Numbered from the stretch's first letter, positions 32,253-52,509 are shown. The stretch: DNA of 64,000 bases from an uncultured Candidatus Saccharibacteria bacterium (GCA_964456475.1 CAYVZI010000007.1:294-64293), one strand, 5' to 3'. The notes: generated from the letters alone by a model not told the origin. Program-made: numbers and translations.

Positions 32253-32253
32253 T

Positions 32254-35343: not shown

Positions 35344-36645
35344 ATGAGACAACTACTAAAGAAAATTATCACCTGGAAGCTCACCTTGATTGCGCGGGCG
35401 ATTCTGTGGCGTCATAAGCCATATGTTATTGCAATTACAGGGAGCGTTGGAAAGACTTCTACAAAAGACGCGATTTACACCGTGCTCAAGTCGAGCGGGA
35501 GTGTTCGTTGTAGTGAAAAAAGTTTCAATAGTGAGCTCGGAGTTCCATTGTCCATTATTGGAGCACAGAGTGGTTGGAATAATATGCTCTCATGGATTGA
35601 GGTTATATTTCTCGGACTGAAACAAATTGTAAGTCCTCGCGGAAGTTATCCCAAGACTTTGGTATTAGAAGTTGGCGCTGACAGACCTGGAGATATCAGT
35701 ACGATAGCAAAATGGCTCAAACCCAATATCGTGGTTATTACGCGATTGCCTGATGTTCCTGTACATATCGAATTTTTTCCAACACTCCAATCACTCATTG
35801 ATGAAAAAATTTCTCTCGCACGATATTTGCGCAAGGAAGGCACGCTGGTGCTGAATGCTGACGATGCCCGAGTGCTTGAAGCAAAAGAAATAATTCATGC
35901 ACGAACAATAACATACGGTACAAACCCGATAGCAAATATACGAGCCTCAAATGTGCAATTACTTGCCCCATCTGATTTGGGGAGTGGAGGACTTGCCTTC
36001 AAGCTCGAATTTGAAGGCAAAATTTTGCCCGTACTCTTGCCGAATATTTATGCAGAAAGTTTTTTGTCGGTCGCTCTTGCATCACTTGCTGTTGCCCATG
36101 TCATGAATCAGAACATGGTCACAGCGATTAATGATATTGGCACCTACAAAACACCACCTGGACGAGTGCATCTTATTGCGGGTACTGGAGACACAGTGCT
36201 GATTGATGATACCTATAATTCTTCTCCCGCTGCGTGTGAAGCTGGATTAAAAATGCTTCACGGCATTCCATTTGGAAATCGAAAAATTGCCATAATTGGT
36301 GATATGCTCGAACTCGGGAAACATACAATTGATGCTCATCGTGCAATCGGAAAAATTGCAAAAGAGTCTGCAACTATTCTTATAACCGTAGGTCTTCGTG
36401 CAAAAGAATGTGCAAATGGAGCTCGGGAATCTGGTATGAATGATAAGAAGATTTTTGAAACGGACAATGCTGTTGCAGCCGCAGAATGCATGAGAAGTAT
36501 GATCAAAAAAGGTGACATTATTTATATAAAAGGAAGTCAGGGAATGCGTATGGAACGTACAGTTAAAGAGCTGATGGCATATCCAGATCAAGCACATGAT
36601 TTGCTTGTTAGACAAGACGATAAATGGACAAAACCACACGCATAA
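35344..36645 (+). CDS. murF: UDP-N-acetylmuramoyl-tripeptide--D-alanyl-D-alanine ligase
   Basis: Mur ligase P-loop ITGSVGKTSTKD, DDTYNSSP and central/C-terminal Mur domains; dcw position. Confidence 0.8.
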   Translation: MRQLLKKIITWKLTLIARAILWRHKPYVIAITGSVGKTSTKDAIYTVLKSSGSVRCSEKSFNSELGVPLSIIGAQSGWNNMLSWIEVIFLGLKQIVSPRGSYPKTLVLEVGADRPGDISTIAKWLKPNIVVITRLPDVPVHIEFFPTLQSLIDEKISLARYLRKEGTLVLNADDARVLEAKEIIHARTITYGTNPIANIRASNVQLLAPSDLGSGGLAFKLEFEGKILPVLLPNIYAESFLSVALASLAVAHVMNQNMVTAINDIGTYKTPPGRVHLIAGTGDTVLIDDTYNSSPAACEAGLKMLHGIPFGNRKIAIIGDMLELGKHTIDAHRAIGKIAKESATILITVGLRAKECANGARESGMNDKKIFETDNAVAAAECMRSMIKKGDIIYIKGSQGMRMERTVKELMAYPDQAHDLLVRQDDKWTKPHA

Positions 36646-36727: not shown

Positions 36728-39700
36728 ATGAGAGTATTTTGCACTTCATTGATGATAAAAAAAGCCTTGCGTTATATAGATATAATAAAGAGTATGGTAA
36801 ACAAAAAAAGTTTGCCGTCTTCGCGTTCTTTTTTTCCTAAACAATCTAATGTTCTTAATCTAAAAAAGAAATCGCCCATTATTGAAATCCATATTCCCGT
36901 ATTGAAAGATTTTTATTTTGAGCACAAGAATACAATTCTCAAATTTGTTTCATTTGTTGTTTGTCTTAGTATTTTGACATCATTCTTTCGAGTCAATGCA
37001 TCAACGGCAGTATTCTATCCAGAGAATTGTTTGGGTGGATGGCAACACACAAAAAATGCTCAGGGCAAGCCGAGTCTTGAAGAAGATGCACCTGCAGAAA
37101 AATTTACAATTCAAAACTCTGCAGTTCTTGGAAACTCGTCTGCTCAAATATTTTGTGGTGCTTTCGTCGGAGAAATTCCAGAAGATACAATGCCGAAGAA
37201 ATTTTTGCTTTCGTTGCGTTGGTCTGTGGATGATGGATCTGTAGTTCACCAGAATGAAACAGATATTGGGTCACCATTTGGTAGCGCAGAAAAAGTTCCT
37301 TCGTCTATTCCGGAATCAAACGCAGAAAATACTGTATCCGAACATACTACAGTTCCTACCACTGATACTGTTCCCCCAGAGGATGCAAGTGTGATTACTA
37401 TTACGCCTTCAGAATCTCAAGATGCATCATCGACATCTGAGCCCACACCTACAACTGACGGAGATCAGTCATTCCTCGATTATTTTTCACCGACAAAAGT
37501 ACATGCTGAAGATACACAATCTGACTCTGCTTCTATTCAAACGGAACAACCAGCAGTATTAGAAAATACCACAAGCACACCTTTGCAAGAAACAAACATT
37601 GTTTCGAATGATACGCCTGTCGATTCTAGTACAACTGTAGAAACAGAGTCACAATCGGAAGAAATTCAAAACAATACTAGTCTCGAAGTTTTGTCTACGC
37701 CAGAAGACGATGGAGCATTTGCTAAAGTGTCCTACACTCTTGATGGTGTCGCATGGAATACTTTGGGTAAAGTAAGTGTCGCTAACTGGAAACAGTCCAC
37801 GTTTGATATTCCACTTGGTACATGGACTGATATCTCGAAACTCCAGGTTTCGATTGATACAATTGTAAGTTATGACAAACAGCCGGTGGTGTATCTCGAT
37901 GCAATGGAGATATCTGTTGAATACGAAGAGGGAAAAATCTTTCAAAAGCCAACAGTGACGATAAAAAATGGTGATGCCCAAGTACTCGAAGGAGATACTG
38001 ATTTTTCTTCAGGCGAGGCACCGATGTTTGCTGTTGTTGACCCGAATCTTTCTCGAAGAGAACTCGCTGATTTGGTAAAGGATAAAAAAGCAGAAGTTGT
38101 TCAAGATTCAGACAAAGTTCTTTCTCCAGAACCTGAAAAGCAAGAAATTGTTCAAACAGAAACTTCAAATTCTAATACGCTTCTTGATGGTATTAAAAAT
38201 GTATTTTCTAGAGATGTTGAAAACGATACACCAAAAGAAAATAATACAGATACACAAACATCACAACCAGATCCTGTAGTAGATACTATTCCTGCTTCAG
38301 AAAGTACAAGAGAAGGTGAACAAACAGCTCCAGTCGAGGTTATTGAAGGTGCTCCTACAGAAGAGGCCGTTACTGCTCCAGAAAATCCACCAGCTGAAAC
38401 TCCAACACCGAGCGATCCTGTTGTCGCTATCTCTCAATTTTTCAAAAAGACGACTGTGTCAAAAATTGCCAGCCGTCCGCGTACATCATTGCCAAAACGA
38501 ACAGAAAATGAAAATACCCATTTATCACTTTTTGCACCGCTTGTAGCCTATGCCGAAGATATATCAGCCCGCACACCAAAAATTACCAATGCACGCGTGC
38601 TTGATTACAACGGCAACCCAACCACGATAAAAACCAAGGTTCAAACTGTCACAATCGACGGAGAGAGTCGTGACGGTGTGAGTATCGAAAAGCAGGAACG
38701 TCATTTCCGTGCAGGGCGCTATACACTCGAAGTTACCGTTGAGACCGCTACTGCAATTATTATTTCCCAACAAGATTTTACTTGGGGGGTGCTTGCAGTG
38801 AACGTAGACAAGAGTGTCTACTCTGCGGGAGATACAGCATTCCTTCAGATGGGAGTGCTTGATGACAAAGGAAATACACTCTGTGATGCACCACTTGAAC
38901 TTTCGATAAAAAGTCCTTCTGGTGCTGTGCAGCATTTTAGAACGACCGATGATACAATTCTACAAAGTAAAAAATGTGCACGAAATAATGTTGTAGAAGT
39001 CGCCGATTATTATGCTCACTATCCAATTCCTGGCGAGCCCGGTACATATATCATTCGATTGACTGCACACACCGACAACGGTACGCGTACTATTCGAGAT
39101 GTGTTTGTTGTAGGTAGTCCGGACTTTGATGTTTCCCGTGCTGCCCCAACTCGTATTTATCCATTCAGTAAATACGATTATCCAATGACGATTCGTATTA
39201 CTCCGAAGCATGATTGGTCCGGTACTGTCGTCGAAACGATTCCCGCTGGCTTTGTTATGTCTCAGCCAAAAAGTAGCCAAAAGTACGATACGCTTAAATC
39301 TACCGATGAACTCACCACTCTTACATGGGATGTTGATTTGAAAGCGGGTGAAGAAACTGTGCTCGGATATCTATTTAAGGGTCCAGAAGTGAGTCCCGAG
39401 TTTTTCTTGGTTGGACCACTCGAATTTTTTGATAAGGGCGCAGATCCCATTACTGCAATACCAGCATTCAAAGAATCTCGTTCATGGCAGATTGCAGATG
39501 ATGCAACGTGTACCGCTGCAGCGAACGGTCCTTGGAATACTTCTGGCACATGGAGTTGTGGAAACGTACCAACTTCATCAGACTCAGTTGTGATCAACGC
39601 CGGTGTTACTGTCACGATGGATGTGAATTCGGCGTCAGTGCTTGGCGTAACAATCAATGGAACACTCGATACTATTACAAGTGGAACGAGTTATTCACTT

Positions 39701-42700
39701 ACTACAACGACGCTTACTATCGGTTCGACTGGCACACTCACTGCCAATGCTTCTACGATTACACTCACTGGTACGACCGGTACGCTTTTTACAATTACAT
39801 CTGGCGGAGTCTTTACCCAAGGGACATCTGAAGTAGTGGTGACAAGCGCGTCTGGAACTCCGACACTATTGTCGGCGGCAACTACTTTTCATAGACTCAA
39901 GATCAATAGTACCGCTACGGTCATCAATGCAGGTGCGGCCATTACAATGAGTTCTGCTGATTCTGCCAATCGTCTCTACCTAGACTTTGGTGTACTCAAT
40001 GACGGCGGCAATCAAATAGTAGGAACTGCAAACGGAACGCTTGTTATAGATGGTGGTGCGGCGCTGTGTATTGGAGGCACTGCCTCTTCTACAAACGCGA
40101 CGTGTAATTCAGGTGCGACTCCAACTTCGGCAACTGTATTTCCGACGAACTATACAAATGGAAATATCACTATGAATGCTGCTGGTGGAGGTGGTTGGTA
40201 TAGTCCATCATGGGGCTATCGAACAAAGCTTACAATTGATGAATCCAAAGTTGGGTCTTCGGACAGCTCTGATTTTCCAGTTTTGGTTAGTTTGACAGAT
40301 AATCGTTTCAGAACAACCGGAAACGGTGGACATATGGGAAATGCTGGTGCCACGGACATGCTCTTTACTTCAAGTGATGGTACAACCAAGCTTAAACATG
40401 AAGTTGAATATTATGTTGCGTCGACCGGGCAGATAGTTGCCTGGGTCAAAATTCCAACACTTTCGTCTACGATAAATACAGAAATCTACATGTACTACGG
40501 CAATGCTGGTGCTGCCGCTCAAGCCGATGCCGCCAATGTGTGGACGAATGGATTTAAATCGGTGCTTCATGTCTCAGATGGAACAACTCTTTCGGCGACT
40601 GATTCCACAGGTACTTACAATGGAACTGTTTCTGGTACAACAGCTACAACAGGTCAGATTGATGGAGGAATGGCGGTAACATGCGGAAACGAAATTACTT
40701 CTCCTCAGGGTCTCTATACAATGGTAGGTGGAGGAAGTACCTATTCGCTTAGTATGTGGGTGTATCAAACATCTACTGGTAATCGATATATTTGGGATGG
40801 AGATTCTACCAACGGACTTTCTGCGTTTATGAGTATTCAAAGTGGAGTCAACCTTGAATGGGGTAATCGAGATATTGCTTCAGAAGGTATTTTATATCGT
40901 GTGTATACGGGGTTGAGTCTGGGTTCAGGTTCATGGCATCATATACTTGCTCAAAAAACGGGAAGTGGAAACAGTGGTGAGTTGTATGTAAATGGTGCTC
41001 TTAAAACCACGTATACTGGATCAATAGGTGGACTTAGTAATTCTTCAAGCGGTATGTATTGGGGTAATTACCATAATTCTGCAACTAACTGTCTTGATGG
41101 AACTATGGATGAAATGCGCATTTCGAGTACAACTCGTAGCGCGGATTGGGTTACAGCCGAATATAATAACCAAAGCTCTCCATCGACATTTTTCCTCACA
41201 CCAGCAACTGAAGAAGCGGTAGAAACAGATGCTACTGTTTACTACAATGCTGATGCGAATACTACGATTTCGAGCACACCTTCTTACCGCAATCTTGTGA
41301 TTGCTCCGCCAATAACTGGTACTCCAACGTATACCTTTGCTTCTGGTGCAACGACTATAAACGGAAATTTCACTATCAATCCGAGTGGATCAACCGCGCT
41401 CACTGTAAATATGGGTGATGATATTACTGTTGCCTCAACAAAGACGACAACTATCACGAGAACTTCCACTGCAACTTCTACGCTTGCGACCGTTTCAAAT
41501 GGTAATGATCTTTCAAGCGGAATTATTGTAATTGATACTGGTGGTACTCTTACTGCGAGTGGAACGACTTCGACGATAACACTCACAGGAACGAGTGGTA
41601 CTCTTCTCACTAACACAGGTACATTCACAGAAGGTACTTCGACTGTGGCGGTCACGAGTGCAACCGGGCCGGTCGCGTTGGTCTCAGCAGCAGAAACTTT
41701 TCATATCCTCACTATCAACTCCGCCTCGTCCAGTACTGTTGTGAACGCCACTGCCGCTGTTACGATTGCAGACGCAACAGGATCTGCACTCACGGTCACA
41801 TCCGGAGTATTTAATGATTCTGGTTTTGGGATTGCCACATCAGGTTCCACCAACAATACTTTAACTCTTGGTTCGGCGGGTACAATGTGTCTCGGTGGTG
41901 CAGCTGGTGCGAATACGGCAACGACCTGTGATACTAGTGCTACATCTACAACAACTCGTGCGATGCCGAGCTTTGCTTCTTACAGTTTTAATGCGACTTC
42001 AACAGTGGTCTATCTTTCGGATGCAGCAACAACTATCGCCAATGCGCAAACATACGGAAATCTTATTTTCCGACCTCGTTTTGTTGCGACAGCCCGTACA
42101 TATACTCTCGGTGGTGCAATGACAATTAACGGAGACTTTACGATTCAGCCGACAAACTTTGCCGCTCTTCTTACGGTGAATCCAGCGGGTAATATCACGG
42201 TCGCTTCTGGCAAGACAACAACTATCAGTTGTACAACCGCAACTTCAACGCTCGATCTTCGTCCGAGTTCGACTGACTACAATCTTTCCACTGGGCTTCT
42301 TGTTGTAGCAAGTGGTGGAACACTTGATGCGGGAAGTGCAGCTTCTGTCATTACACTTTCGGGAACTTCTGGCACACTCTTTACACGCGCAGGCACGTTT
42401 ACACAAGGAAGTTCAGTAGTAACACTTTCTGGAAACGGTGCAGCTACGATCAATTCGGGAACAATTACTTTTTACGATCTCACTCAAACTGGAACGGGAA
42501 CAAAAACGGTTGGAAGTTCATCTGCTCTTACCATCAACCACGACTTGATAATCTCTGCCGGAGAATTCGCACCAAATCTCCAGTTGGTTACCGCTAGTGG
42601 CACCAACGTTCTTTCAGTTGCTTCAGGTGCAACACTTTATGTAGATACGAGCACGTTTGCGGGAAATTATACTGGTTTTGATACGCGTACTATTTCAGCC

Positions 42701-45700
42701 GGCTCAACAGTGGATTACAAGCTTGCCGGAACACAGACTGTTGACTCCACACTCACGTACTCAAATTTGGTTATTTCCGGAGCTTCAGGCACAAAATCAC
42801 CGGATGGAAATATCACAGCAACACTCACGTTTGTACAATCTGGAGGTAATACATTTGACCTTCTTCCAGGTTCAACCGATTACAACCTCACTACTGGAAA
42901 TCTTACAATCGGCACGGGGTGTACACTCGATGGTGGAAGTTCTTCAGCAATTATCACACTCACAGGAACTTCCGGAACACTCTTTACAAAAACCGGAACA
43001 TTTACCCAAGGCACAACGACTGTTATTGCAACTTCTGCTTCGGGAACGCCGACACTCCTTTCTGCGGCAACCACATTCCATCGTTTGACGATTAACGCGG
43101 CGGCCACCGTAGTTAATGCTGGTGCAGCTATTACCATGAGTTCGACGAGCGCTCTCAATAGACTCTATATTCAAAAAGGTGTATTGAATGATGGCGGAAA
43201 TCAAATTACTGGTACTGCAAACGGGACACTCATTGTTGGTGGAAATGCAGCACTCTGTATTGGAGGTACGGCTACAGGAACGAACGCCACTTGTGATTCT
43301 GGTGCGACGCCGATTTCGGCCACGACATTCCCAACAAATTACACAAATGGAAATATCACGATATACGCATCTGCAATTGCAGGTTCATGGTACAGCAGTT
43401 CATGGGGTTACCGCACAAAAATCACCATTGACGATGCAAAAGTGTCTACGACAAATCATACAGACTTTCCAGTTTTGATTAATAGTACGAATGGAGATTG
43501 GAAATATACAGGCTCGGGAGGGAAAGTGGGCAACTCCGACGGCACAGATATTTTGTTCACATCATCTGATGGTACGACAAAACTCAAACATGAAATCGAG
43601 CGATATATATCCACGACAGGAGAGGTTATTGCTTGGGTAAAAGTTCCAACACTTACTACTTCGGGCGATACTGAACTCTATATGTATTACGGTAATGCTG
43701 GAGTTGGAGCGCAAGCAGATGCGGCAAACGTGTGGGATTCAAACTTCAAAACGGTGCTGCACCTTGGCGATGGTTCGACACTCTCTGCTGCGAGTTCGAC
43801 TGGTATAAATAATGGAACTAAAGTTGGAACTATTTCGGCACTTGAAGGAAAGATTGGTGGTGCGGCTTGTGCGAACGGAACCACACAGTGTAGTGGTACG
43901 GCGAGTACGAGCAATGGTCTTACATTTACTACGTTCTCCTCAACGACTCCGACTCTGACCGCATGGATCAAACTCGACAATGCAAGCGGATACCAAAACG
44001 TGGCGGCTCTCAACCAAACAAACGGAGTTTGGTTGAACGCCGGTAAAATGGACCTGTATACGACAGCCGACCATAATGCGAACACAAGTGTAGGTACAGG
44101 ATCGTGGGTGCATGTGGGTATGACGTATGATGGAACAACGATTCGTTACTATTACAACGGAGCTACTGATGGTACTGGCTCTGTTGCATCGTTTAACTAT
44201 CAAATCAACGGTATGTTTAAAGATGCGACTGGTACAGCTGAAACATTAAAGGGATCAATGGACGAAATTCGATTTTCAAATACCGTTCGTTCTGCCGGAT
44301 GGATTCAAACTGAATACAACACAATGAACTCACCATCGACATTCTATTCCCTTGGAGTAGAGGAAGTATATGGTGCGTCATCTGCAATTGTGTATTACAA
44401 CGCAGATGCGAATACAACGGTTTCGGCTACACCAACATATGCTGATTTGCGACTTCGACCCGTACTTACTGGAGACAAGACCTATACGGTTTCTAGTGCG
44501 CTTACAGTAAACGGTGATCTCAGTATCAACCCGAGTGGTAGTGCAAATACACTCACTGTGAATGCAGGTGGGCACATCACGCTTACGTATGGAACGACAA
44601 CCATTACAAGACAGGGAAGTAATGCGCTTTCTTCGCTTGATCTTCGTCCAAGTTCGACCGACTATAATCTTTCATCACAGTATCTGACTATCGCCACTGG
44701 CGGAACCCTCGATGCCACGAGTGCCGCTTCGACAATCACACTTACTGGAACATCAGGAACTCTTATTACATTTGGAGGAACTTTTAATGTCGGTACGTCA
44801 ACGGTTCTTATTTCTGGAAATGGTACGGCAACACTCAACTCTGGTGTGGGAAATTTCTATCACCTTACGCAGAATGCAACTGGCACAAAATCGCTTGGCG
44901 CTAATATTACGATCGATCCAGCGGCGACACTCACTATCACGCTCGGAACACTTGATACCACAGGTTCAAACTACATAATCTCTGCTGGCCATATTGATAT
45001 TGCAAACTCGGCAAGCGCAGTACTTACGGCAAATGCTTCCGCAGTTGGACTTACCGGAACATCCGGAACCCTGCTTACTCGTGGAAGCTCGGGTGTATTT
45101 ACCGCAGGAACTTCAATTGTTACTGCCTCGGGGAATGGTACGGCGACATTCAATTCGGGTACATTCACTGGTAGTAATGCGTTCAATGATCTCATTTCAA
45201 GCGGTACAGGCACAAAAACATTGGGAGCTGCTATAGATATTGGAGGCACGTTCGGTGTCACTGGAGGTACTTTTGCACTTAGCTCACACAATATAGGAGT
45301 TACTGGAGTTACAATCGGTGCCTCCGGTACTATCGATGGTGGAAGTGCAACGATTACAAACTCTGGAGGTTGGACAAATAGCGGAACTTATACATCGAGC
45401 ACCAGTACTGTTCTGTTTAATACTGCAAGTACGATTACTATTTCCGGAACAACAAGTTTCAATAATCTCACCATTACACACACTGCTGCAAAAGTGGTTA
45501 ACTTTGCGGCTTCTGGTGGTACTCCGACCTATACTGTAACTGGTGCCTTTACTGTGACAGGACATGCTGCTGCGCTCATCAAGCTTTGGTCGGCTTCTAG
45601 CGGAACAAAATGGGATTTGTTGCCGAGTGGTACGGCATCTGTTGATTATGTAGACGTTATGGACGGAGGCTGTCATTCTGGAGCAATTAATATTAATCCA

Positions 45701-46201
45701 ACAAATGCGACAAATAGTGGTAACAACGATTCATGTTGGGGATTTAACGTTGCTCCAACGATTACATTTTCAATTAATTCAAATTCCGTTCCACTCGGAA
45801 CACTTACTTCAGTTGGTACAGGATCAGGTTCACATACAATTAGTATGTCAACGAATACCGGCGCATTGCTCCTTAGTTATATTGGTGCAACACTGACGAG
45901 CGGAGCGAATACTATACCCGCATACCCCTCACTCTCTGCGTCGGTTGCTGGAACTGCTGGATTTGGAATAAATGCGGTTGATACGGCAATAAGCAATGCT
46001 TCCGGCACTTGTTCCGCAGCCATTGACTATGCGACGGCAAGCGCCTACACGTTCGTAACAGGAACTACAACTCCGTTTGTTACTTCTTCTTCTCCTGCTG
46101 ACTGTACAATCACTGCTACATATAAGGCAAACATCAGTACAGTTACTGCGGCCGGTTCGTATTCAACGGGTCTGACATATATCGTGACAGGCACATTTTA
46201 G
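36728..46201 (+). CDS. giant (3157 aa) cell-surface protein: N-terminal TM anchor, acidic S/T/P/E-rich linker, long T/G/S-rich beta-helix-like repeats, two DUF2341 + LamG (concanavalin-like) modules, and a WxL-like C-terminal domain ending TGTF
   Basis: Single uninterrupted 9.5-kb ORF. DUF2341 signature twice (SWGYRTKLTIDESKV...DFPVLV...DGTTKLKHEVEYY...AWVKIPTLS...IYMYYGNAG). LamG-like ends twice (MDEMRISSTTRSADWVTAEYNNQSSPSTF, MDEIRFSNTVRSAGWIQTEYNTMNSPSTF). ~300-aa T/G-rich repeats (LDLRPSSTDYNLS...GGTLDAGSA...TLTGTSGTLFT). The true start may be the internal Met MVNKKSLPSS. Confidence 0.8.
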   Translation: MRVFCTSLMIKKALRYIDIIKSMVNKKSLPSSRSFFPKQSNVLNLKKKSPIIEIHIPVLKDFYFEHKNTILKFVSFVVCLSILTSFFRVNASTAVFYPENCLGGWQHTKNAQGKPSLEEDAPAEKFTIQNSAVLGNSSAQIFCGAFVGEIPEDTMPKKFLLSLRWSVDDGSVVHQNETDIGSPFGSAEKVPSSIPESNAENTVSEHTTVPTTDTVPPEDASVITITPSESQDASSTSEPTPTTDGDQSFLDYFSPTKVHAEDTQSDSASIQTEQPAVLENTTSTPLQETNIVSNDTPVDSSTTVETESQSEEIQNNTSLEVLSTPEDDGAFAKVSYTLDGVAWNTLGKVSVANWKQSTFDIPLGTWTDISKLQVSIDTIVSYDKQPVVYLDAMEISVEYEEGKIFQKPTVTIKNGDAQVLEGDTDFSSGEAPMFAVVDPNLSRRELADLVKDKKAEVVQDSDKVLSPEPEKQEIVQTETSNSNTLLDGIKNVFSRDVENDTPKENNTDTQTSQPDPVVDTIPASESTREGEQTAPVEVIEGAPTEEAVTAPENPPAETPTPSDPVVAISQFFKKTTVSKIASRPRTSLPKRTENENTHLSLFAPLVAYAEDISARTPKITNARVLDYNGNPTTIKTKVQTVTIDGESRDGVSIEKQERHFRAGRYTLEVTVETATAIIISQQDFTWGVLAVNVDKSVYSAGDTAFLQMGVLDDKGNTLCDAPLELSIKSPSGAVQHFRTTDDTILQSKKCARNNVVEVADYYAHYPIPGEPGTYIIRLTAHTDNGTRTIRDVFVVGSPDFDVSRAAPTRIYPFSKYDYPMTIRITPKHDWSGTVVETIPAGFVMSQPKSSQKYDTLKSTDELTTLTWDVDLKAGEETVLGYLFKGPEVSPEFFLVGPLEFFDKGADPITAIPAFKESRSWQIADDATCTAAANGPWNTSGTWSCGNVPTSSDSVVINAGVTVTMDVNSASVLGVTINGTLDTITSGTSYSLTTTTLTIGSTGTLTANASTITLTGTTGTLFTITSGGVFTQGTSEVVVTSASGTPTLLSAATTFHRLKINSTATVINAGAAITMSSADSANRLYLDFGVLNDGGNQIVGTANGTLVIDGGAALCIGGTASSTNATCNSGATPTSATVFPTNYTNGNITMNAAGGGGWYSPSWGYRTKLTIDESKVGSSDSSDFPVLVSLTDNRFRTTGNGGHMGNAGATDMLFTSSDGTTKLKHEVEYYVASTGQIVAWVKIPTLSSTINTEIYMYYGNAGAAAQADAANVWTNGFKSVLHVSDGTTLSATDSTGTYNGTVSGTTATTGQIDGGMAVTCGNEITSPQGLYTMVGGGSTYSLSMWVYQTSTGNRYIWDGDSTNGLSAFMSIQSGVNLEWGNRDIASEGILYRVYTGLSLGSGSWHHILAQKTGSGNSGELYVNGALKTTYTGSIGGLSNSSSGMYWGNYHNSATNCLDGTMDEMRISSTTRSADWVTAEYNNQSSPSTFFLTPATEEAVETDATVYYNADANTTISSTPSYRNLVIAPPITGTPTYTFASGATTINGNFTINPSGSTALTVNMGDDITVASTKTTTITRTSTATSTLATVSNGNDLSSGIIVIDTGGTLTASGTTSTITLTGTSGTLLTNTGTFTEGTSTVAVTSATGPVALVSAAETFHILTINSASSSTVVNATAAVTIADATGSALTVTSGVFNDSGFGIATSGSTNNTLTLGSAGTMCLGGAAGANTATTCDTSATSTTTRAMPSFASYSFNATSTVVYLSDAATTIANAQTYGNLIFRPRFVATARTYTLGGAMTINGDFTIQPTNFAALLTVNPAGNITVASGKTTTISCTTATSTLDLRPSSTDYNLSTGLLVVASGGTLDAGSAASVITLSGTSGTLFTRAGTFTQGSSVVTLSGNGAATINSGTITFYDLTQTGTGTKTVGSSSALTINHDLIISAGEFAPNLQLVTASGTNVLSVASGATLYVDTSTFAGNYTGFDTRTISAGSTVDYKLAGTQTVDSTLTYSNLVISGASGTKSPDGNITATLTFVQSGGNTFDLLPGSTDYNLTTGNLTIGTGCTLDGGSSSAIITLTGTSGTLFTKTGTFTQGTTTVIATSASGTPTLLSAATTFHRLTINAAATVVNAGAAITMSSTSALNRLYIQKGVLNDGGNQITGTANGTLIVGGNAALCIGGTATGTNATCDSGATPISATTFPTNYTNGNITIYASAIAGSWYSSSWGYRTKITIDDAKVSTTNHTDFPVLINSTNGDWKYTGSGGKVGNSDGTDILFTSSDGTTKLKHEIERYISTTGEVIAWVKVPTLTTSGDTELYMYYGNAGVGAQADAANVWDSNFKTVLHLGDGSTLSAASSTGINNGTKVGTISALEGKIGGAACANGTTQCSGTASTSNGLTFTTFSSTTPTLTAWIKLDNASGYQNVAALNQTNGVWLNAGKMDLYTTADHNANTSVGTGSWVHVGMTYDGTTIRYYYNGATDGTGSVASFNYQINGMFKDATGTAETLKGSMDEIRFSNTVRSAGWIQTEYNTMNSPSTFYSLGVEEVYGASSAIVYYNADANTTVSATPTYADLRLRPVLTGDKTYTVSSALTVNGDLSINPSGSANTLTVNAGGHITLTYGTTTITRQGSNALSSLDLRPSSTDYNLSSQYLTIATGGTLDATSAASTITLTGTSGTLITFGGTFNVGTSTVLISGNGTATLNSGVGNFYHLTQNATGTKSLGANITIDPAATLTITLGTLDTTGSNYIISAGHIDIANSASAVLTANASAVGLTGTSGTLLTRGSSGVFTAGTSIVTASGNGTATFNSGTFTGSNAFNDLISSGTGTKTLGAAIDIGGTFGVTGGTFALSSHNIGVTGVTIGASGTIDGGSATITNSGGWTNSGTYTSSTSTVLFNTASTITISGTTSFNNLTITHTAAKVVNFAASGGTPTYTVTGAFTVTGHAAALIKLWSASSGTKWDLLPSGTASVDYVDVMDGGCHSGAININPTNATNSGNNDSCWGFNVAPTITFSINSNSVPLGTLTSVGTGSGSHTISMSTNTGALLLSYIGATLTSGANTIPAYPSLSASVAGTAGFGINAVDTAISNASGTCSAAIDYATASAYTFVTGTTTPFVTSSSPADCTITATYKANISTVTAAGSYSTGLTYIVTGTF

Positions 46202-46261
46202 GTTGGTATTTATACACAAATTTAATTGCGTATCTATTTTTAGACATGTTATAATAATGAT

Positions 46262-47398
46262 ATGTTACAAACATTCTCTCAAAAGTATGCGAGTAGTTTT
46301 AAAAAAATAGCTCATGTTTTGACCAACACTGTCCTTATTATCACTCTCTCGGTTGGTATGCTTGTTCCAGCCCTCACTAACGCTGCTACACTTACATCTG
46401 CAGCAGACACAATGAGCAATGAGAAAGTCAGTGCAAACTCCGATCACACATTTACTTGGACTTCTGTTGCTGCTTATGCCGCAAACGACACTATTACGAT
46501 TACATCGTCTACTGCCAACAACTATACTTCAGCCGGCTCTTGGGTGGTCGGAGACTTTCAGCTTACAATGACTGGCGGTACAAACGGCACTTCGGCAACA
46601 AACCCAGTTGCGGTAGCTTCCTCAGGACCATCATGTTCAGCTGGTGCGGGTAATTACACAGTTACTTATACGAACTCAACCAGTCCATCATTTGTTATTA
46701 CGCTTTGTAGCTCTTTTGGAACAACAAGTACAACGAGTGCTGTCACATTTAAGATCAAAGGTGCAACGGGTACAGGAACTCTTACCAACAAATCAAGTGC
46801 CGTTGCCTCAACTCTTTGGACTATCACAAACGGAGTAGGAAACACTGACAGTACAACAGTTGCAGGTGTAATTATCACCGATAACGTTGTTGTCGTTTCT
46901 GCTACTGTAAATCCAACTCTTACTTTCTCACTCGGTGCAACAACAGTTAGTCTCGGAACTCTTACTACTGGTACCACCGGTACAGGTCAACATACTCTAC
47001 TTGCAGCTACAAACGGTTCGGGTGGTCTTGCTATAACATATAGTGGAACCACACTTACTGCTACAGGAGGCACAATTGCTGCGTATGGAGCCTCAGCTGT
47101 AGTTCCTGCAGTTGGTACGGCGGGTTACGGTATTAATCTTAAAGCAAACACCAGTCCTTCGGTGGCGAGTTCAGATAACCCTATAACAAACGCTGGTGCT
47201 ACCTGTACTGCTGCAACTCCCTACAACTCTGTAAATGAGTTTGCCTTTGTTGGAGGAAGCACTATTACATCTCTAGCTTCAGCTGGTGGTGCCGCAGACT
47301 GCACCTTTCGTGTATCTTACATTGCGAATATTTCAAGTGTTACTCCATCCGGATCATATTCTTCTTCGATTAGCTACATCGCTACCGGAACATTTTAA
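46262..47398 (+). CDS. secreted T/S/G-rich protein sharing the C-terminal (WxL-like) domain of the giant protein
   Basis: Signal anchor (VLIITLSVGMLVPALTNA). The C-terminal ~150 aa aligns with the end of ORF 36728..46201 (SLGTLTTGT...GTAGYGINLK...ADCTFRVSYIANISSVTPSGSYSSSISYIATGTF versus ...ADCTITATYKANISTVTAAGSYSTGLTYIVTGTF). Confidence 0.7.
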   Translation: MLQTFSQKYASSFKKIAHVLTNTVLIITLSVGMLVPALTNAATLTSAADTMSNEKVSANSDHTFTWTSVAAYAANDTITITSSTANNYTSAGSWVVGDFQLTMTGGTNGTSATNPVAVASSGPSCSAGAGNYTVTYTNSTSPSFVITLCSSFGTTSTTSAVTFKIKGATGTGTLTNKSSAVASTLWTITNGVGNTDSTTVAGVIITDNVVVVSATVNPTLTFSLGATTVSLGTLTTGTTGTGQHTLLAATNGSGGLAITYSGTTLTATGGTIAAYGASAVVPAVGTAGYGINLKANTSPSVASSDNPITNAGATCTAATPYNSVNEFAFVGGSTITSLASAGGAADCTFRVSYIANISSVTPSGSYSSSISYIATGTF

Positions 47399-47404
47399 TT
47401 ATTT

Positions 47405-48448
47405 ATGATCAGTAACCTCAAAAAATTTCTTCCTCGATTCTTACCTATTTTTCTTTTCGTTATTACTGTTTTTTTTGCTCTATCAGCACCGAATGCATTT
47501 GCTTTGACCATCACACCTATTCGTTTTGAGCTTAAGGCTAATCCGGGTCAAACGATCAAACAAGAAATTACACTTTTCAACGAACACGAAACTGAAGAAA
47601 TTTTGTATGTTTCGTATGCCAATTTTGAGGCATCGGGAGATAGTGGAAATCCTACCTTTGTTGAACCCAAGGATGGTCTTGGTACTTGGATGAATGCAGC
47701 CGAGAAGGTGACTATCGCTCCAAAATCATCACAAATTGTACCACTCGTTATTACTCTCCCACACGATGCAACACCAGGTGGTCATTTTGCGGTGGCTTTC
47801 TGGGGTACCGTTCCACCAAAGAGTACGAGTAATCAGGTATCTATTGGTTCAAAGACAGGAGTTCTCGTGCTCCTTTCGGTTTCTGGAGCTGTAAGCGAAG
47901 ATGGTGGAATTATCGAATTTGATACAAAGGACAAAAAGAACTTTTACACTTCGCTTCCAGTTAGTTTTTTTTACAAATTTCAAAACAATGGAGGAGATCG
48001 GGTAAAGCCTACAGGAAATATCATAATCAAAAATATGATTGGTATTACAGCGTCAAAAGTTCAAGGAAATCCTGTTGATGGAAATGTGCTTCCAAACAGT
48101 ACTCGAAAAATTGAAACAGTATGGCAAGGCAAGGACGGTGATACTCCTATCGATGATGTTGATCAAGGTAATTTTTTTACCAAAGCAGGTCGTGAGTGGC
48201 GTAATTTTGCATTCGGTTATTACAAAGCCAATCTTTCGCTTTCATACGGTACAAAAAATCAGGTAACAATGGCAAGTGTTGGAATTTGGGTTTTTCCGTG
48301 GCATCTCCTGATACTTATACTCATTGTTGGATGTATTGCATACATCGCACTTCGAAAGGGTATTAGTCACTACAACAACTGGGTTATTTCACGAGCTGAA
48401 GACATGCTACGACGGGAACATGTTCGTCGTAGTAAAAAACAACAGTAA
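47405..48448 (+). CDS. DUF916/DUF3324-like Ig-fold cell-surface protein with C-terminal TM anchor (CscA-like; alternatively PapD-like chaperone fold)
   Basis: Signal peptide, LTITPIRFELKANPGQTIKQEITLFNEHE beta-sandwich pattern, second Ig-like region (GNIIIKNMIGITASKVQGNPVDGNVLPNSTRKIETVWQG), then TM helix and basic tail (RKGISHYNN...RRSKKQQ). Architecture recalled from Firmicutes WxL-locus partner proteins. Confidence 0.6.
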   Translation: MISNLKKFLPRFLPIFLFVITVFFALSAPNAFALTITPIRFELKANPGQTIKQEITLFNEHETEEILYVSYANFEASGDSGNPTFVEPKDGLGTWMNAAEKVTIAPKSSQIVPLVITLPHDATPGGHFAVAFWGTVPPKSTSNQVSIGSKTGVLVLLSVSGAVSEDGGIIEFDTKDKKNFYTSLPVSFFYKFQNNGGDRVKPTGNIIIKNMIGITASKVQGNPVDGNVLPNSTRKIETVWQGKDGDTPIDDVDQGNFFTKAGREWRNFAFGYYKANLSLSYGTKNQVTMASVGIWVFPWHLLILILIVGCIAYIALRKGISHYNNWVISRAEDMLRREHVRRSKKQQ

Positions 48449-48453
48449 TCGCC

Positions 48454-49377
48454 ATGCGTACCTCTCTTCTTATACTACTCTCTATTTTGGGATGTGTTTT
48501 TATTGTAAAGACGTCTTTTGCTGTTGAAGTTAGTTCTGGAGGAAGTGCGACTGTGACAGCTTGCGTCGGTAGTAGCTGTGATGGAGGTGGAGGCGGCGGG
48601 GGTGGTGGAGGCGGCGGGGGTGGAGGAGGCGGTGGCGGCGGGGGGTATGGAACACCGACGAGCATTAGTTTTTCTGGTAGAGCGTACCCGCTCTCACGAG
48701 TGGTAATTCTTAAAGACGGTCAAGAGGTACTGAATACAATTTCGGGACCCGATGCGCGATTTTCACTCTCTATTTCAAATTTGACTGCCGGGATGTCTAC
48801 GTTTTCAATTCTCTCGGAAGATAAGACTGGACGTCGTTCGACGTTGTTTACGATTCCTATTTCAATTACGGCTGGGACATCGTCAGTTATTTCCGGAGTT
48901 TTTCTTTCGCCCACAATTGACGTCGATAAAAGAACAGTAAGAAAGGGTGATCCTATTACAATTTTTGGCGTCACGGCTCCTGGTTCTGAAGTGACTATCA
49001 CGGTCAATTCGCTTACTCCACATTTGTTGAGCACGATGTCTGACGAAGATGGTGCATATTTTTATACGTTCAATACGGCACCACTTGAATATGGGCGACA
49101 TAGTACTCGATCAAAAGCCGAAATCACTTCCACAAACGAAGTCACATCGTATGGTTCTGTTGTGTCGTTTGATGTGGGCTCTGTCACAACCCTAAAGAAT
49201 GGCTGTGATACGCTCAAAGGTGATTTTAGCACTGACTGTCGTGTGAACTTAATTGATTTTTCAATTATTTCGTATTGGTATAAGCGTGTTGGCTTTTCGT
49301 CAAAAATTGACCTGAACGGTGATGGTAAGATTACTTTTGTTGACTTCTCAATCATGGCGTACTATTGGACAGGCTAA
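48454..49377 (+). CDS. secreted protein with 23-residue poly-Gly linker, Ig-like domain and C-terminal dockerin-like module
   Basis: Signal peptide; G23 tract; two dockerin-type Ca-binding segments at the C-terminus (DFSTDCRVNLIDFSIISYWYKR and DLNGDGKITFVDFSIMAYYWTG). Confidence 0.65.
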   Translation: MRTSLLILLSILGCVFIVKTSFAVEVSSGGSATVTACVGSSCDGGGGGGGGGGGGGGGGGGGGGYGTPTSISFSGRAYPLSRVVILKDGQEVLNTISGPDARFSLSISNLTAGMSTFSILSEDKTGRRSTLFTIPISITAGTSSVISGVFLSPTIDVDKRTVRKGDPITIFGVTAPGSEVTITVNSLTPHLLSTMSDEDGAYFYTFNTAPLEYGRHSTRSKAEITSTNEVTSYGSVVSFDVGSVTTLKNGCDTLKGDFSTDCRVNLIDFSIISYWYKRVGFSSKIDLNGDGKITFVDFSIMAYYWTG

Positions 49378-49380
49378 CTG

Positions 49381-49417
49381 ACTAGTAAGTAGAAAATAGA
49401 TAGTAGAAAGTAGAGAA
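49381..49417 (+). repeat. stop-codon-rich repeat (copy d)
   Basis: actagtaagtagaaaatagatagtagaaagtagagaa; shares a 30-nt identical core with copy e at 62821..62850. Confidence 0.65.
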
Positions 49418-49421
49418 TACA

Positions 49422-50363
49422 ATGCAAAAAATAGTAATACACAAACAAAATAACCCTCTCCACAAGAATGTAATTCGAGTTTTTTCTACTTTCTATTTTC
49501 TGCTTTCTATTTTCTGCTTCGTAACCGAAGCACACGCGGCCGATTCTCAAATGCAATTTGTGCTACCCTCGAGCTCTGTTGGAGTCGGCGATGAATTTGC
49601 TGTACCACTGACACTCCGAAGTGGTGATCAAAAGGTGAATACAATAAGCGGTGATATTGTTTTTTCAGATTCTACGGTTCGACTCGCTCGTGTGTCTACT
49701 GCAAATTCGATTATAACTTCATGGATCGATCAACCGATTCTTTCAGGGAATTCGGTCACCTTTTCTGGAATTATTGCAGGTGGTTTTGAAGGTGTTATTG
49801 ATCCAACAACCAACACACGTACTGATGGTGTTGTGATTACTTTGTATTTTGAGGCGACTCATCAAGGTACGGCTTCAATTTCCTTTGCTGATTTTCATGC
49901 ATATCTCAATGACGGCATGGGGACAGAAGCAACACTCTCCTTGCTTCCACTTACTTTTGTTGTTGAAAAGATTGGTACAGGAATGAAGTCTGATATACTA
50001 GATACAGTTCCTCCAGAATCATTTACTCCAATTGTTTCTGCTATACCTGATTTGTACGACGGTGCGTATGCACTATTCTTTCAAACAACAGACAAAGGAT
50101 CAGGACTCAGTCATTATGAAGTGAGCGAAGCATTCGGACCCTGGAAGAGGGTAACGAGTCCGCACCTGCTTTCAGATCAATCGCTCCGTGGTCCAATTCG
50201 AGTAAAAGCGGTTGATGAGGCCGGTAATTACAGAATCGAAACAATGCCAGGGGCTGGTCTATTCAACAAAAATATACTTTTGATTCCGTTTGGTCTTGTG
50301 GGGCTACTTGTATTATGGATTTTCCTTGTGTACAAAAAGAAAATGAAGAAAAAATATATATAA
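49422..50363 (+). CDS. cohesin-domain surface protein with C-terminal TM anchor
   Basis: Signal peptide (AHAADS), cohesin-like beta-sandwich (QMQFVLPSSSVGVGDEFAVPLTLRSGDQKVNTISGDIVFSDSTVRLARVS...VVITLYFEATHQGTASISF), Ig/FN3-like middle (VKAVDEAGN), C-terminal TM + KKKMKKKYI. The N-terminal codons overlap an inverted copy of the stop-rich repeat (49486..49525). Confidence 0.65.
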   Translation: MQKIVIHKQNNPLHKNVIRVFSTFYFLLSIFCFVTEAHAADSQMQFVLPSSSVGVGDEFAVPLTLRSGDQKVNTISGDIVFSDSTVRLARVSTANSIITSWIDQPILSGNSVTFSGIIAGGFEGVIDPTTNTRTDGVVITLYFEATHQGTASISFADFHAYLNDGMGTEATLSLLPLTFVVEKIGTGMKSDILDTVPPESFTPIVSAIPDLYDGAYALFFQTTDKGSGLSHYEVSEAFGPWKRVTSPHLLSDQSLRGPIRVKAVDEAGNYRIETMPGAGLFNKNILLIPFGLVGLLVLWIFLVYKKKMKKKYI

Positions 50364-50372
50364 TTTTACAAA

Positions 50373-51932
50373 ATGAACAAGAGGTTACTCACATCATTTA
50401 CAGTACTCGGATTTTTGCTTCTTTCTATTGCAACGCCTGTGTTTGCAGCAGATTTGTTGATTACTCCAAGTTCAGGATCCTATTCTGTGGGTAGGGATTT
50501 TACTGTATTGATCAAGGTTTCCACACCAGACCAATCTGCAAACGCATTTTCTGGCGAGATTGGCTATCCTACCGACAAACTTAGAGTACAGAATGTTTCA
50601 AAATCAAACTCAATAATCAACTATTGGCCGACAGAACCATCTGTATCTTCTGGAATCATAAAATACGAAGGAGTAAGTGTGAACCCTGGCTATACTGGTT
50701 CCTCTGGAACATTGCTTCAAATTACGTTTCGTACGCTTGCACCCGGAGTTGCGACTGTGAGATTCAAATCTGCGTCAGTTTTGGCCAATGATGGTCTTGC
50801 CACAAGTATTCTCAACAATCTTGGAATCGGTTCGTATACAATCAAGACACTCGATGTTCCCATTGAAGACATTCCAACAAAGGTGACTGCAGTACCCGGG
50901 TTACCCGAAGCACCTCAGGTGACTTCAAGTACTCACCCTGACCAGACATTGTGGTACAAAAACAATACGCCACTCATAAACTGGACAATACCTAGCGGAA
51001 TTTCCGGTGTAGGTCTCATGGTCAACGAAACTGCGACCACAATTCCTACCGTGCGGTCTCTCGGACGTGTCACGGGATATAACATTGCGAAACTTACCGA
51101 TGGGGAGTGGTATGCGCACGTTCGCTATTTGAATGGAAACGGATGGGGTACTACAGCGCATTATCGATTTGGAATAGACACCGTACCTCCGACTGATTTT
51201 GCTATTACCCCAAATATTCCTGAAAAAGATGCCACAACCGCCACACTTTCTTTGTCTACGACTGATACTGTGTCTGGAATTGATCGATATATCTTGAGTA
51301 TTGATGGAGGTGCTCCAATTGTCGTTCCTGCGACAATGGTATGGGAGACTCCAGTGTTGCCACCAGGTAATCATACGGTGGTAGGAGAAGTATTCGATAA
51401 GGCTGGCAACAGTAAGAGTGTAACGGCTACATTTACAACGACTGGAATTCCAGCTCCAACAATTACTACCTATCCAAAGGAATTGAAGACGGGAGAGACT
51501 CTTATTATAACTGGAAGTGCACATCCGAAATCGACAGTTCTGATTTCGATTACAGAGAAGACTGACAATAAATATTCGTTTGGATCAATCGTATATCAAA
51601 AGAACGATAGTCCAGATGTAGAAGAAGTCGTCGCTGATGCACAAGGAGCATTTACATTTATTTACGATAAGAAGGTAAAGAGCGGTACATACACACTCTC
51701 TGCTGTCACCAAGTTTGGAGTATATGAAAGTGCTTCCAGTAATTCCGTTACGATTAATGTAACGCAGTCGTTGTTTATGCGACTTCTCGGGTTGTTTATC
51801 CAGTACTTCAACATAATCGTTTCTTGTATAGCTATCATCTCATTGTTTATTTCGGTAATGCTGTATCGCGAGATCAAAAAAATCCACAGGCACATCGGCT
51901 ATCCGGAAGGAGGCCCAAAGCCGATGGTTTAG
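50373..51932 (+). CDS. cohesin-domain surface protein with Ig/FN3-like repeats and C-terminal TM anchor
   Basis: Signal peptide, cohesin-like N-terminal domain (DLLITPSSGSYSVGRDFTVLIKVSTPDQSANAFSGEIGYPTDKLRVQNVS...LLQITFRTLAPGVATVRF), FN3-like modules (VFDKAGNSKS), C-terminal TM (IIVSCIAIISLFISVMLY) and charged tail. Confidence 0.65.
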   Translation: MNKRLLTSFTVLGFLLLSIATPVFAADLLITPSSGSYSVGRDFTVLIKVSTPDQSANAFSGEIGYPTDKLRVQNVSKSNSIINYWPTEPSVSSGIIKYEGVSVNPGYTGSSGTLLQITFRTLAPGVATVRFKSASVLANDGLATSILNNLGIGSYTIKTLDVPIEDIPTKVTAVPGLPEAPQVTSSTHPDQTLWYKNNTPLINWTIPSGISGVGLMVNETATTIPTVRSLGRVTGYNIAKLTDGEWYAHVRYLNGNGWGTTAHYRFGIDTVPPTDFAITPNIPEKDATTATLSLSTTDTVSGIDRYILSIDGGAPIVVPATMVWETPVLPPGNHTVVGEVFDKAGNSKSVTATFTTTGIPAPTITTYPKELKTGETLIITGSAHPKSTVLISITEKTDNKYSFGSIVYQKNDSPDVEEVVADAQGAFTFIYDKKVKSGTYTLSAVTKFGVYESASSNSVTINVTQSLFMRLLGLFIQYFNIIVSCIAIISLFISVMLYREIKKIHRHIGYPEGGPKPMV

Positions 51933-52093
51933 CTATCCTCAAAAACAGTCAAAAAGCCTTAAAAATAAGGCTCTTTGACTGTTTTAGGGTATAAATTACT
52001 TGACAAATATAATATAATATGGTAATATATAAATGAAAAGGTGTGGCATTCAGCTACTCCGCAAAAATACAAACAAACTAAAATTGTATATTT

Positions 52094-52459
52094 ATGAAAA
52101 GTGTTCTTTTAAGTATCGCCATGTTAGTAATCATCGTGTTGACCTCAAACCAGGCTAGTGCTCAGACTTTGGGCACATATGAGCCAAAGGTGATGAGTGA
52201 AAACTTCACTATTGGTGGAGTTCAGATTACGATGAAATGGTTCTCGGAAACGGGAATCCATTATTACGGTAAAGACATACTGAATAAGTATGTCACCATC
52301 AAAAACGGCGTAATTTACGCCAAACCCTGCTGTGACAGGCCGGTGTCCATTACGGTGGACACAAACAGCGGCCAAGCTGTACACTTTGTACAGCCGGGTG
52401 ACAAAAAAATTATTCTCGCTCGCACCAGCGAAAAGGCACGCATCGAACTGCAGTTTTAG
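52094..52459 (+). CDS. small secreted protein
   Basis: Signal peptide MKSVLLSIAMLVIIVLTSNQASAQ; 121 aa; own terminator. Confidence 0.5.
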   Translation: MKSVLLSIAMLVIIVLTSNQASAQTLGTYEPKVMSENFTIGGVQITMKWFSETGIHYYGKDILNKYVTIKNGVIYAKPCCDRPVSITVDTNSGQAVHFVQPGDKKIILARTSEKARIELQF

Positions 52460-52478
52460 TAGCAGTTCATAATATTCA

Positions 52479-52509
52479 AAAGAGCCGGATTTAATTCGGC
52501 TCTTTTTTT
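52479..52509 (+). terminator. rho-independent terminator
   Basis: AGAGCCG-gatttaatt-CGGCTCT + T7. Confidence 0.7.

Follow-up and report, generated by a model that had tools for sequence, protein, structure and literature searches.

A six-gene cassette encoding a probable Pam-type pilus with a putative dockerin-cohesin base in CPR bacteria

A large part of bacterial diversity belongs to the Candidate Phyla Radiation (CPR), ultra-small bacteria that rely on attaching to hosts, and to our knowledge few of the organelles they use for this have been described in molecular terms. A DNA stretch of 64,000 nucleotides from an uncultured Candidatus Saccharibacteria bacterium (GCA_964456475.1, CAYVZI010000007.1:294-64293; hereafter the window) raises the question of what surface structure is made by six consecutive open reading frames (ORFs) on its + strand, at positions 36728-51932. 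We read these genes, here named g1 to g6, as a compact Pam-type pilus operon (probability about 0.72), in which g1 would be the tip, g2 the shaft, g3 the chaperone, g4 the adaptor and g5 and g6 the base.

The six ORFs follow one another with gaps of 60, 6, 5, 44 and 9 bp, and their coordinates agree with those of a first-pass annotation made from the sequence alone. In a Kyte-Doolittle scan, g2 and g4 carried an N-terminal hydrophobic segment only, g3, g5 and g6 carried one at each end, and g1 had a single one (residues 68-91); every product is secreted or membrane-anchored. Coordinates, strand and hydrophobic segments bear out the claim of six consecutive same-strand surface-protein genes, and it remains correct that this locus of a CPR bacterium is dedicated to assembly at the cell surface. 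The profile searches that the annotation had proposed found DUF2341, Laminin_G_3, DUF916, Dockerin_1 and Cohesin, some of them below threshold or at the family level, and did not find DUF3324 or WxL.

The Pam pilus was identified in 2026 in one cultured Saccharimonadia species, the parasite Candidatus Mycosynbacter amalyticus, whose donor-strand-exchange filaments were studied by cryo-electron microscopy (Troman et al. 2026, bioRxiv 10.64898/2026.03.03.709456). In these CPR filaments, the linker of the pilins PamA and PamB, deposited under the PDB codes 25PZ and 25QA, is the donated strand and is accepted by the C-terminal domain (CTD) of the neighbour. The pam operon of this species lies on NZ_CP045921.1 (WP_260763277-289). 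According to the AlphaFold-based part of the same study, PamT consists of the CTD only and sits at the tip, PamC and PamD are PapD/FimC-like chaperones with a C-terminal transmembrane (TM) helix, and PamR is an RbmA-like protein with two FnIII domains, a C-terminal TM helix and an N-terminal strand, which was proposed as terminator and anchor. The emphasis of that paper is on Saccharimonadia and Microgenomatia, and its text mentions neither cohesin, dockerin, WxL/DUF916 and DUF2341 nor Paceibacteria. Searching the literature, we found no paper that assigns cohesin and dockerin a part in the surface structures of CPR bacteria. The earlier statement that the locus is not a described system therefore fails for the core of pilin and membrane-anchored chaperone, which is the Pam pilus, and stands for the cohesin, dockerin, WxL/DUF916 and DUF2341 components.

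The shaft pilin and the proposed tip protein

The gene g2 (46262..47398) encodes a 378-aa protein with a signal peptide, an N-terminal beta-sandwich, a linker and a CTD. As the first-pass annotation had claimed, g2 shares only its C-terminal ~150 aa with g1: residues 216-378 of g2 align with residues 3008-3157 of g1 at 45% identity (E 8e-14), and nothing else is common to the two proteins. This shared domain matched the NCBIfam model NF058581, "Pam pilus system pilin subunit", with 105.6 bits in g2 (residues 226-378) and 74.6 bits at the C-terminus of g1, where the curated cut-off is 55 bits. The AlphaFold2 (AF2) model of g2, with a mean predicted local distance difference test score (pLDDT) of 89.7, has one beta-sandwich domain at 45-205 and another at 220-378, with an unpaired segment (206-219) between them.

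Within this segment lies the proposed donor strand, the g2 linker at residues 207-218 (DNVVVVSATVNP; 46880..46915), which forms no strand in the monomer model and ranks with the best-conserved parts of the pilin sequence. In 90 pilins, V210 is conserved at 99%, A214 at 98% and V216 at 99%, with the consensus D-D-Q-V-x-[VI]-T-A-T-V-N-P, and the extreme C-terminal residue of all pilins and tip proteins is Phe or Tyr. Model and conservation together give the sandwich, the conserved single linker and the CTD that define a two-domain Pam pilin, so g2 is a two-domain shaft pilin, with the linker as its likely donor strand.

The first-pass annotation had instead read the shared "TGTF" domain as WxL-like. 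When g2 and 50 family members were searched with Pfam, no family matched, and WxL was absent at E <= 1. A profile search of PDB sequences with the shared-domain family found nothing, no W-x-L motif occurs in the domain, and no WxL chain is among its top fold matches. The hhalign comparison with the WxL-named partners of actinobacterial DUF916 proteins reached 3%, that is, no similarity. With these negatives, and with the Pam cut-off passed, we reject a WxL identity of the g1 and g2 domain: it has no detectable WxL relationship and is a Pam pilin CTD instead. A deep relationship between the WxL domain and the Pam CTD may exist, and nothing in these sequence comparisons supports it.

To place the six genes in a wider context, we collected related loci by lookups of three g3 homologs and by a one-genome-per-species scan, which gave 86 loci from ~80 species, and assigned the genes by iterated profile searches on all ORFs. 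Almost all loci keep one order: a tip-position protein, one to three pilin copies, a g3-like chaperone, a single dockerin protein and one or two cohesin proteins. Since the flanks differ among loci, the cassette is the conserved unit, and the synteny check suggested by the first-pass annotation thus returned the six-gene order in ~80 CPR species. By record title the great majority of the loci belong to CPR lineages (Nomurabacteria, Paceibacterota, Gracilibacteria, Peregrinibacteria and Peribacteria), and the complete Parcubacteria genome RAAC4_OD1_1 is among the carriers. Many of the carrying metagenome-assembled genomes bear a Saccharibacteria label and a few are listed as Gammaproteobacteria, Pseudomonadales or Bacteroidia, labels that are all unconfirmed.

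The first gene, g1 (36728..46201), encodes 3157 aa and ends in the Pam pilin CTD (residues 3008-3157; 45749..46198), with no donor linker before it. We scored linkers with a position-specific scoring matrix (PSSM) built from pilin residues 208-217: the last 220 aa of g1 reached 2.1, compared with 21.6 in g2. The same holds for tip-position proteins in general, whose median is 1.0 compared with 26 in pilins, and the linker pattern [VILT]x[VIL][STN]Ax[VI] occurs in 8/66 of them and in 84/89 pilins. The proteins upstream of the pilins in loci L003-L086 have only the C-terminal Pam domain in common, carry unrelated N-terminal modules and range from 113 to 2642 aa as called, many of them clipped by the locus end. 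Because g1 has the acceptor domain without the donor linker, and because the N-terminal modules of its orthologs are hypervariable, we propose that g1 is probably a giant tip adhesin. The PamT equivalog model NF058579 gave 48.5 bits for g1 and 70.4 bits for g2, both below its cut-off of 240 bits.

Pfam found DUF2341 twice (E 1.4e-21), Laminin_G_3 twice (3.1e-21), G8 (2.4e-6) and a weak MG2 in g1, in line with the two DUF2341 and LamG modules already claimed. Module A (residues 979-1586; 39662..41485) combines T/G/S-rich beta-helix-like repeats with DUF2341 and LamG, and module B (residues 2042-2637; 42851..44638) is its duplicate. A comparison of the two segments gave 52% identity over 619 columns (E 8e-174), an internal duplication of ~600 aa. 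The best Laminin_G_3 stretch lies in module A (1336-1475) and the best DUF2341 stretch in module B (2271-2337).

The sole hydrophobic segment of g1 (residues 68-92; 36929..37003) had been called a TM anchor. Residues 1-92 (36728-37003) consist of a basic extension of ~65 aa and the hydrophobic segment, followed by ...RVNA-S. The giant orthologs in six loci (L003, L012, L016, L030, L036 and L048) conserve both the basic extension and the continuation A-S-x-A-T-F-Y-P..C-L-G-G-W-E-H ("ATFYP..CLGGWEHPENAQGEP"). We tentatively read the segment as a long cleaved signal peptide instead of a signal anchor; the presence of one hydrophobic segment stands, and it is compatible with either reading. The region resembles the extended signal-peptide regions of very large secreted proteins.

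Among the tip-position proteins, the g1-like N-terminus is one of several unrelated kinds. One type starts with "GGPDTYGY...SYSW" and has ~965-977 aa (L042, L059, L060 and L085), another starts with "YQF.PT...TGTEQ" and has 1317-2390 aa (L005, L022, L025, L056 and L067), and many others have just ~330-360 aa.

The membrane-anchored chaperone-like protein

The third gene, g3 (47405..48448), encodes a 347-aa membrane-anchored protein which AF2, Foldseek and hhalign place in the DUF916/WxLIP superfamily as a chaperone-like member. In its AF2 model (pLDDT 89.4), a signal helix is followed by beta-sandwich strands at 39-134 and 151-296, with a low-confidence loop at 144-147, and by a C-terminal helix (299-346), of which 299-321 is the predicted TM segment in the Kyte-Doolittle scan. 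Foldseek against the PDB ranked the Enterococcus faecium WxLIP structures 9i25_C ("bound to long WxL", E 7e-10) and 9i1y at the top, followed by the chaperone-usher chaperones CfaA, CsuC, EcpB and CupB2 (E 1e-8 to 3e-6). By description, g3 also fits the architecture of PamC and PamD, a chaperone fold with a C-terminal TM helix.

Homology to DUF916 was found by a second route. A tblastn search of plasmids with g3 led to actinobacterial "DUF916 domain-containing proteins", and the Clavibacter member clears the Pfam gathering score (35 bits). Since the g3 family aligns with this bona fide DUF916 protein (hhalign 98.6%, E 4.8e-16, 276 columns including the TM helix), the DUF916 call is right at the homology level. 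With Pfam, WxLIP_PGBD (DUF916) matched g3 itself at E 2.7e-5 and 24.6 bits, where the gathering score is 27.3, and matched 27/52 g3 homologs. In all, 498 g3 homologs are detectable, none with an informative name, and a lookup of the exact g3 sequence returned no contig. The DUF916/DUF3324 claim of the first-pass annotation is therefore kept for the twin Ig-fold, the TM helix and the DUF916 homology, which hhalign and the top PDB match support at the superfamily level, and it is dropped for DUF3324, which Pfam did not detect in g3. The g3 profile against PDB sequences gave only spurious TM-helix matches to MsbA.

The actinobacterial relatives have neighbours of their own. On plasmids of Clavibacter (L093:6101-7915) and Cellulosimicrobium (L094:6070-7912), the DUF916 gene lies directly downstream of a secreted protein of ~207 aa, and such neighbours are named WxL-domain proteins in UniRef. 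They end in ...G-x-Y-S-S-T-[IL]-T-L-[ST]-L-F-E, loosely like the Pam ending ...G-x-Y-S-T-x-x-T-Y-x-A-T-G-T-F, with no similarity by hhalign. Among the small WxL-named proteins, 5/23 have a weak Pfam DUF4402 match (best E 0.0049) and 0/23 match Pfam WxL. The Cellulosimicrobium locus also adjoins large "LamG-like jellyroll" proteins and GH43 enzymes, and the DUF916 loci on Cohnella and Streptomyces plasmids have no annotated WxL neighbours.

The dockerin protein and the membrane-anchored cohesins

The fourth gene, g4 (48454..49377), encodes a 307-aa secreted protein, the proposed adaptor, with a signal peptide, a donor-like motif, a poly-Gly run, Ig domains and a dockerin; Pfam found Big_6 and Dockerin_1. 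For g4 itself Dockerin_1 reaches 22.1 bits, slightly short of the gathering score (22.9). The family was detected in 36/37 g4 orthologs (best E 5.6e-9), and the ortholog profile matched the type I dockerins 2y3n_B (E 3.6e-6), 5nrm_B and 1daq in the PDB. The two-segment dockerin predicted earlier is therefore real at the ortholog-family level. It occupies residues 255-302 (49216..49359), with two Ca-binding-loop repeats and invariant Asp at positions 257, 261, 268, 290 and 297.

Just after its signal peptide, g4 carries a pilin-linker-like motif (residues 30-39, GSATVTACVG; 48541..48570), followed by the poly-Gly run. In its orthologs the corresponding motif, for example VSISATV, VTITATV or LNISAQV, also follows the signal peptide and precedes a Gly/Pro-rich spacer, with 45% Gly+Pro in the 25 aa after the motif. 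The linker pattern was found in the first 110 aa of 71/74 g4 orthologs (96%), compared with 15/500 control ORFs (3%), 0/77 proteins of the first cohesin family (COH1), 1/63 of the second (COH2) and 3/85 chaperones. The linker PSSM gave the same separation, with a median of 9.2 in this region of the g4 orthologs compared with -4.8 in control ORFs, -1.9 in shuffled sequences, -2.7 and -0.1 in the cohesin proteins and -4.6 in chaperones. At one locus with three pilin paralogs, the 455-aa dockerin protein (L013:4991-6355) begins with a pilin-type N-terminal domain (SDTMS...SDH) in place of the short motif and reads as, in effect, a pilin-dockerin fusion.

The last two genes encode proteins with an N-terminal cohesin or cohesin-like domain and a C-terminal TM segment, as the first-pass annotation had described; the cohesins are real at the ortholog-family level and the TM segments are present. 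The 313-aa g5 (49422..50363) has a cohesin at residues 44-158 (49551-49895), an Ig-like domain, a TM segment at 282-306 and a basic tail. In the 519-aa g6 (50373..51932), a cohesin-like domain at 26-160 (50448-50852) is followed by Ig-like domains and a TM segment at 470-501. Pfam Cohesin matched g5 with E 2.1e-3 and 18.7 bits, under the gathering score of 24.1, and it matched 7/41 g5 orthologs (best 5.2e-6) and 15/41 g6 orthologs (best E 1.1e-9), the g6 family also having Big_13. The N-terminal domains of g5 and g6 are homologous to each other (BLASTP 1e-16; hhalign 100%, E 1.2e-40). Against the PDB, the g5-family profile matched the Ruminococcus flavefaciens cohesin 5aoz (E 0.0024), and the g6-family profile found no match. 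Between the cohesin and the membrane helix, weak NCBIfam matches to an "OmpL47-type beta-barrel domain" lie in g5 219-270 (E 2.5e-4) and g6 288-355 (8.9e-6), below the cut-off.

Proposed assembly, alternatives and setting

How would these proteins build a pilus? After Sec export, the membrane-anchored g3 would hold each subunit by completing its open CTD. The candidate g3 donor strand is residues 148-159 (IGSKTGVLVLLS), and Arg40 or Lys150 would contact the carboxylate of the C-terminal Phe. Because g1 has the acceptor domain and lacks the donor linker, it would be incorporated first and come to lie at the tip, where ~3000 residues of LamG/DUF2341 and beta-helix-like modules would be presented to the host or substrate. 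The pilin g2 would then polymerise, with the linker strand of each subunit entering the CTD of the preceding one. The linker-like strand at the N-terminus of g4 would enter the last pilin, and growth would therefore end. Through the poly-Gly spacer and the Ig domains of g4, its Ca-dependent dockerin could plug into a cohesin, that of g5 or that of g6, and these two proteins would tether the filament to the membrane. In such a scheme, g4 and g5/g6 would jointly replace the single PamR terminator/anchor of Candidatus Mycosynbacter amalyticus. Our bolder proposal has two parts: that a secreted g4 caps the pilus and plugs its dockerin into membrane cohesins, the first such pilus anchor, and that WxL/Csc clusters and Pam pili branched from one ancient system without an usher, in which membrane-anchored chaperones handle strand-complemented surface proteins. 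We hold it tentatively, at somewhat less than even odds.

Several observations weigh against the pilus reading. The Pfam scores of the window's own g3, g4 and g5 all fall just below the gathering scores, and g6 has no Pfam Cohesin match of its own, only Big_13. The window's g4 motif, SATVTAC, is weak, with a PSSM score of 4.8 and Ala at the position of pilin Val210. If g1 were anchored in the membrane by its N-terminal hydrophobic segment, as it may be, it would fit poorly as a tip. For g3, NCBIfam gave no match, and hhalign against seven Escherichia coli K-12 chaperones (FimC, YadV, SfmC, ElfD, YcbF, YehC and YfcS) reached a non-significant 2.5%, although this short alignment places g3 Arg40 opposite the conserved chaperone Arg; what links g3 to the classical chaperones is therefore its fold. 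RbmA is also among the Foldseek matches of g3, with lower TM-scores. Since the chaperone profile similarity is not significant, NCBIfam is silent and RbmA is among the fold matches, a PamR-like anchoring role for g3 is conceivable, and g3 may have it. Finally, the exchange of donor strands, the part of g3 as chaperone, the capping of the pilus by g4 and the binding of dockerin to cohesin are all predictions.

Could the locus be a divergent WxL/Csc complex, in which the large g1 and the small g2 are held at the wall non-covalently by g3, with no filament? The best structure matches of g3 are indeed to WxLIP of E. faecium, among them the complex of WxLIP with long WxL (9i25), g3 has a bona fide DUF916 protein among its homologs, and a large and a small protein with a common C-terminal domain beside a two-Ig membrane protein is the layout of WxL clusters (PMC10599100). 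We nevertheless consider this quite unlikely, given that the 50 family members, the motif search and the top fold matches contained no Pfam WxL, no W-x-L motif and no WxL chain, that hhalign gave 3% with WxL-named partners while the Pam pilin cut-off was passed, and that a WxL complex gives no role to a near-invariant linker which is repeated at the N-terminus of g4.

The cassette might also consist of two independent neighbours, a Pam-type pilus of g1-g3 and an unlinked cohesin-dockerin surface display of g4-g6. Non-cellulosomal cohesin and dockerin modules are widespread, and the link between g4 and the pilus is a predicted one with a weak motif in the window. Against this stand the order and short gaps kept in almost all of the 86 loci despite different flanks, the pilin-linker motif at the mature N-terminus of 96% of g4 orthologs compared with 3% of controls, and the pilin N-terminal domain fused to the dockerin protein of L013, so we regard independence of the two halves as unlikely. 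Most improbable are a Gram-positive pilus of the sortase type and an enzyme scaffold like that of cellulosomes: 0/6 proteins have LPxTG, the six genes and their flanks have no sortase, catalytic or carbohydrate-active domain, and each cassette has a single dockerin protein and no enzyme-borne dockerin.

With the described Pam system the cassette has in common the pilin CTD family, for which it passes the NCBIfam cut-off, a pilin of two domains whose linker is conserved, a linker-less CTD subunit at the (here proposed) tip, a protein of chaperone fold that ends in a membrane helix, the lack of usher and sortase, and the restriction to CPR bacteria. It differs in having one chaperone where M. 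amalyticus has two (PamC and PamD), and in a 3157-aa multi-module tip, under the PamT equivalog cut-off, where PamT is single-domain. The cassette also has no protein of PamR architecture, its strand motif being on the TM-less g4 and its TM anchors on the cohesins g5 and g6, and it lacks the ATP-synthase neighbourhood. The lineages differ as well, those of the cassette being, by title, the five CPR groups named above, together with many genomes under unconfirmed Saccharibacteria or even Gammaproteobacteria labels. The Pam pilin and membrane chaperone core is thus already known; the Pam paper contains neither the putative base of cohesins and dockerin nor the link to DUF916. We describe the cassette as a distinct and widespread Pam variant, marked by a probable giant adhesin at the tip, by one chaperone of DUF916 type and by a putative base in which a dockerin meets cohesins.

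In the WxL/Csc clusters of Firmicutes, WxLIP consists of DUF916 (PGBD), DUF3324 (HBD) and a TM segment (Hassan et al. 2023, PMC10599100). The cassette resembles these clusters in the WxLIP architecture and DUF916 homology of g3, and in the large and small partners with a common C-terminal domain. However, the clusters have at least two WxL-domain proteins (dual Trp-x-Leu motif) whereas none was detected here, DUF916 is sub-threshold and DUF3324 undetected in g3, no LPxTG protein is encoded, and dockerin and cohesin genes are present.

CPR bacteria have no outer membrane and no usher. Chaperone-usher pili (Pap/Fim, CFA/I and Csu) are similar in the proposed completion of an incomplete Ig-like subunit by a chaperone strand and then by the neighbour's strand, in a tip adhesin that joins an adhesin module to a pilin domain without a donor strand, and in the fold of g3, which is like CfaA, CsuC, EcpB and CupB2. 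They differ in that no usher-like gene occurs in the six genes or their flanks and no outer membrane is present, that g3 is membrane-anchored and not soluble and does not match the E. coli chaperones significantly at the profile level, and that the donor is an internal linker instead of an N-terminal extension, except in g4. With cellulosomal and non-cellulosomal cohesin-dockerin systems the cassette shares the duplicated Ca-loop dockerin and a cohesin beta-sandwich on anchoring proteins; here, in contrast, no enzymes are attached, the dockerin protein has a pilin-linker-like N-terminus, and g5 and g6 are anchored by a C-terminal membrane helix, not by SLH or sortase.

The compact six-gene Pam version is conserved in ~80 CPR species across a wide range of record-title lineages, and it offers a concrete assembly order of tip, shaft, adaptor and anchor. 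Its hypervariable giant tip proteins are likely determinants of host specificity. For cohesin-dockerin pairs a new job, pilus anchoring, is proposed, and if true, the dockerin-cohesin plug would be an anchor type undescribed for any pilus. The homology of g3 to DUF916/WxLIP also gives a lead on how the WxL clusters found in enterococci, listeriae and lactobacilli may work.

The window (~40% GC) is a CPR-like chromosome segment with tRNAs and genes for TopA, RelA/SpoT, GAPDH, RpiB, Rpe and transketolase. Division and cell-wall genes lie immediately upstream of the cassette, namely RsmH, an FtsL-sized ORF, a penicillin-binding protein (PBP) and a Mur ligase; the wider upstream region (27562-36645) reads PBP, aminoacyl-tRNA synthetase (aaRS), RsmH, FtsL-sized ORF, PBP and Mur ligase. 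At L005/L006 (15798-21044), the cassette is just upstream of PBP, GreA, aaRS, MraZ and RsmH. Given the differing flanks at other loci, it may be a coincidence that division and cell-wall genes lie nearby in these cases. Promoter and terminator scans at the operon boundaries gave nothing decisive. Downstream of the cassette, two promoter-like sites (52000-52028 and 52513-52541) pair an exact TTGACA with a TG-extended second hexamer, and a terminator-like hairpin with a 13-bp stem lies at 52478-52506, after a small ORF (52094-52459). The next ORF downstream, 52560-52904, has a weak match to a response-regulator receiver domain.

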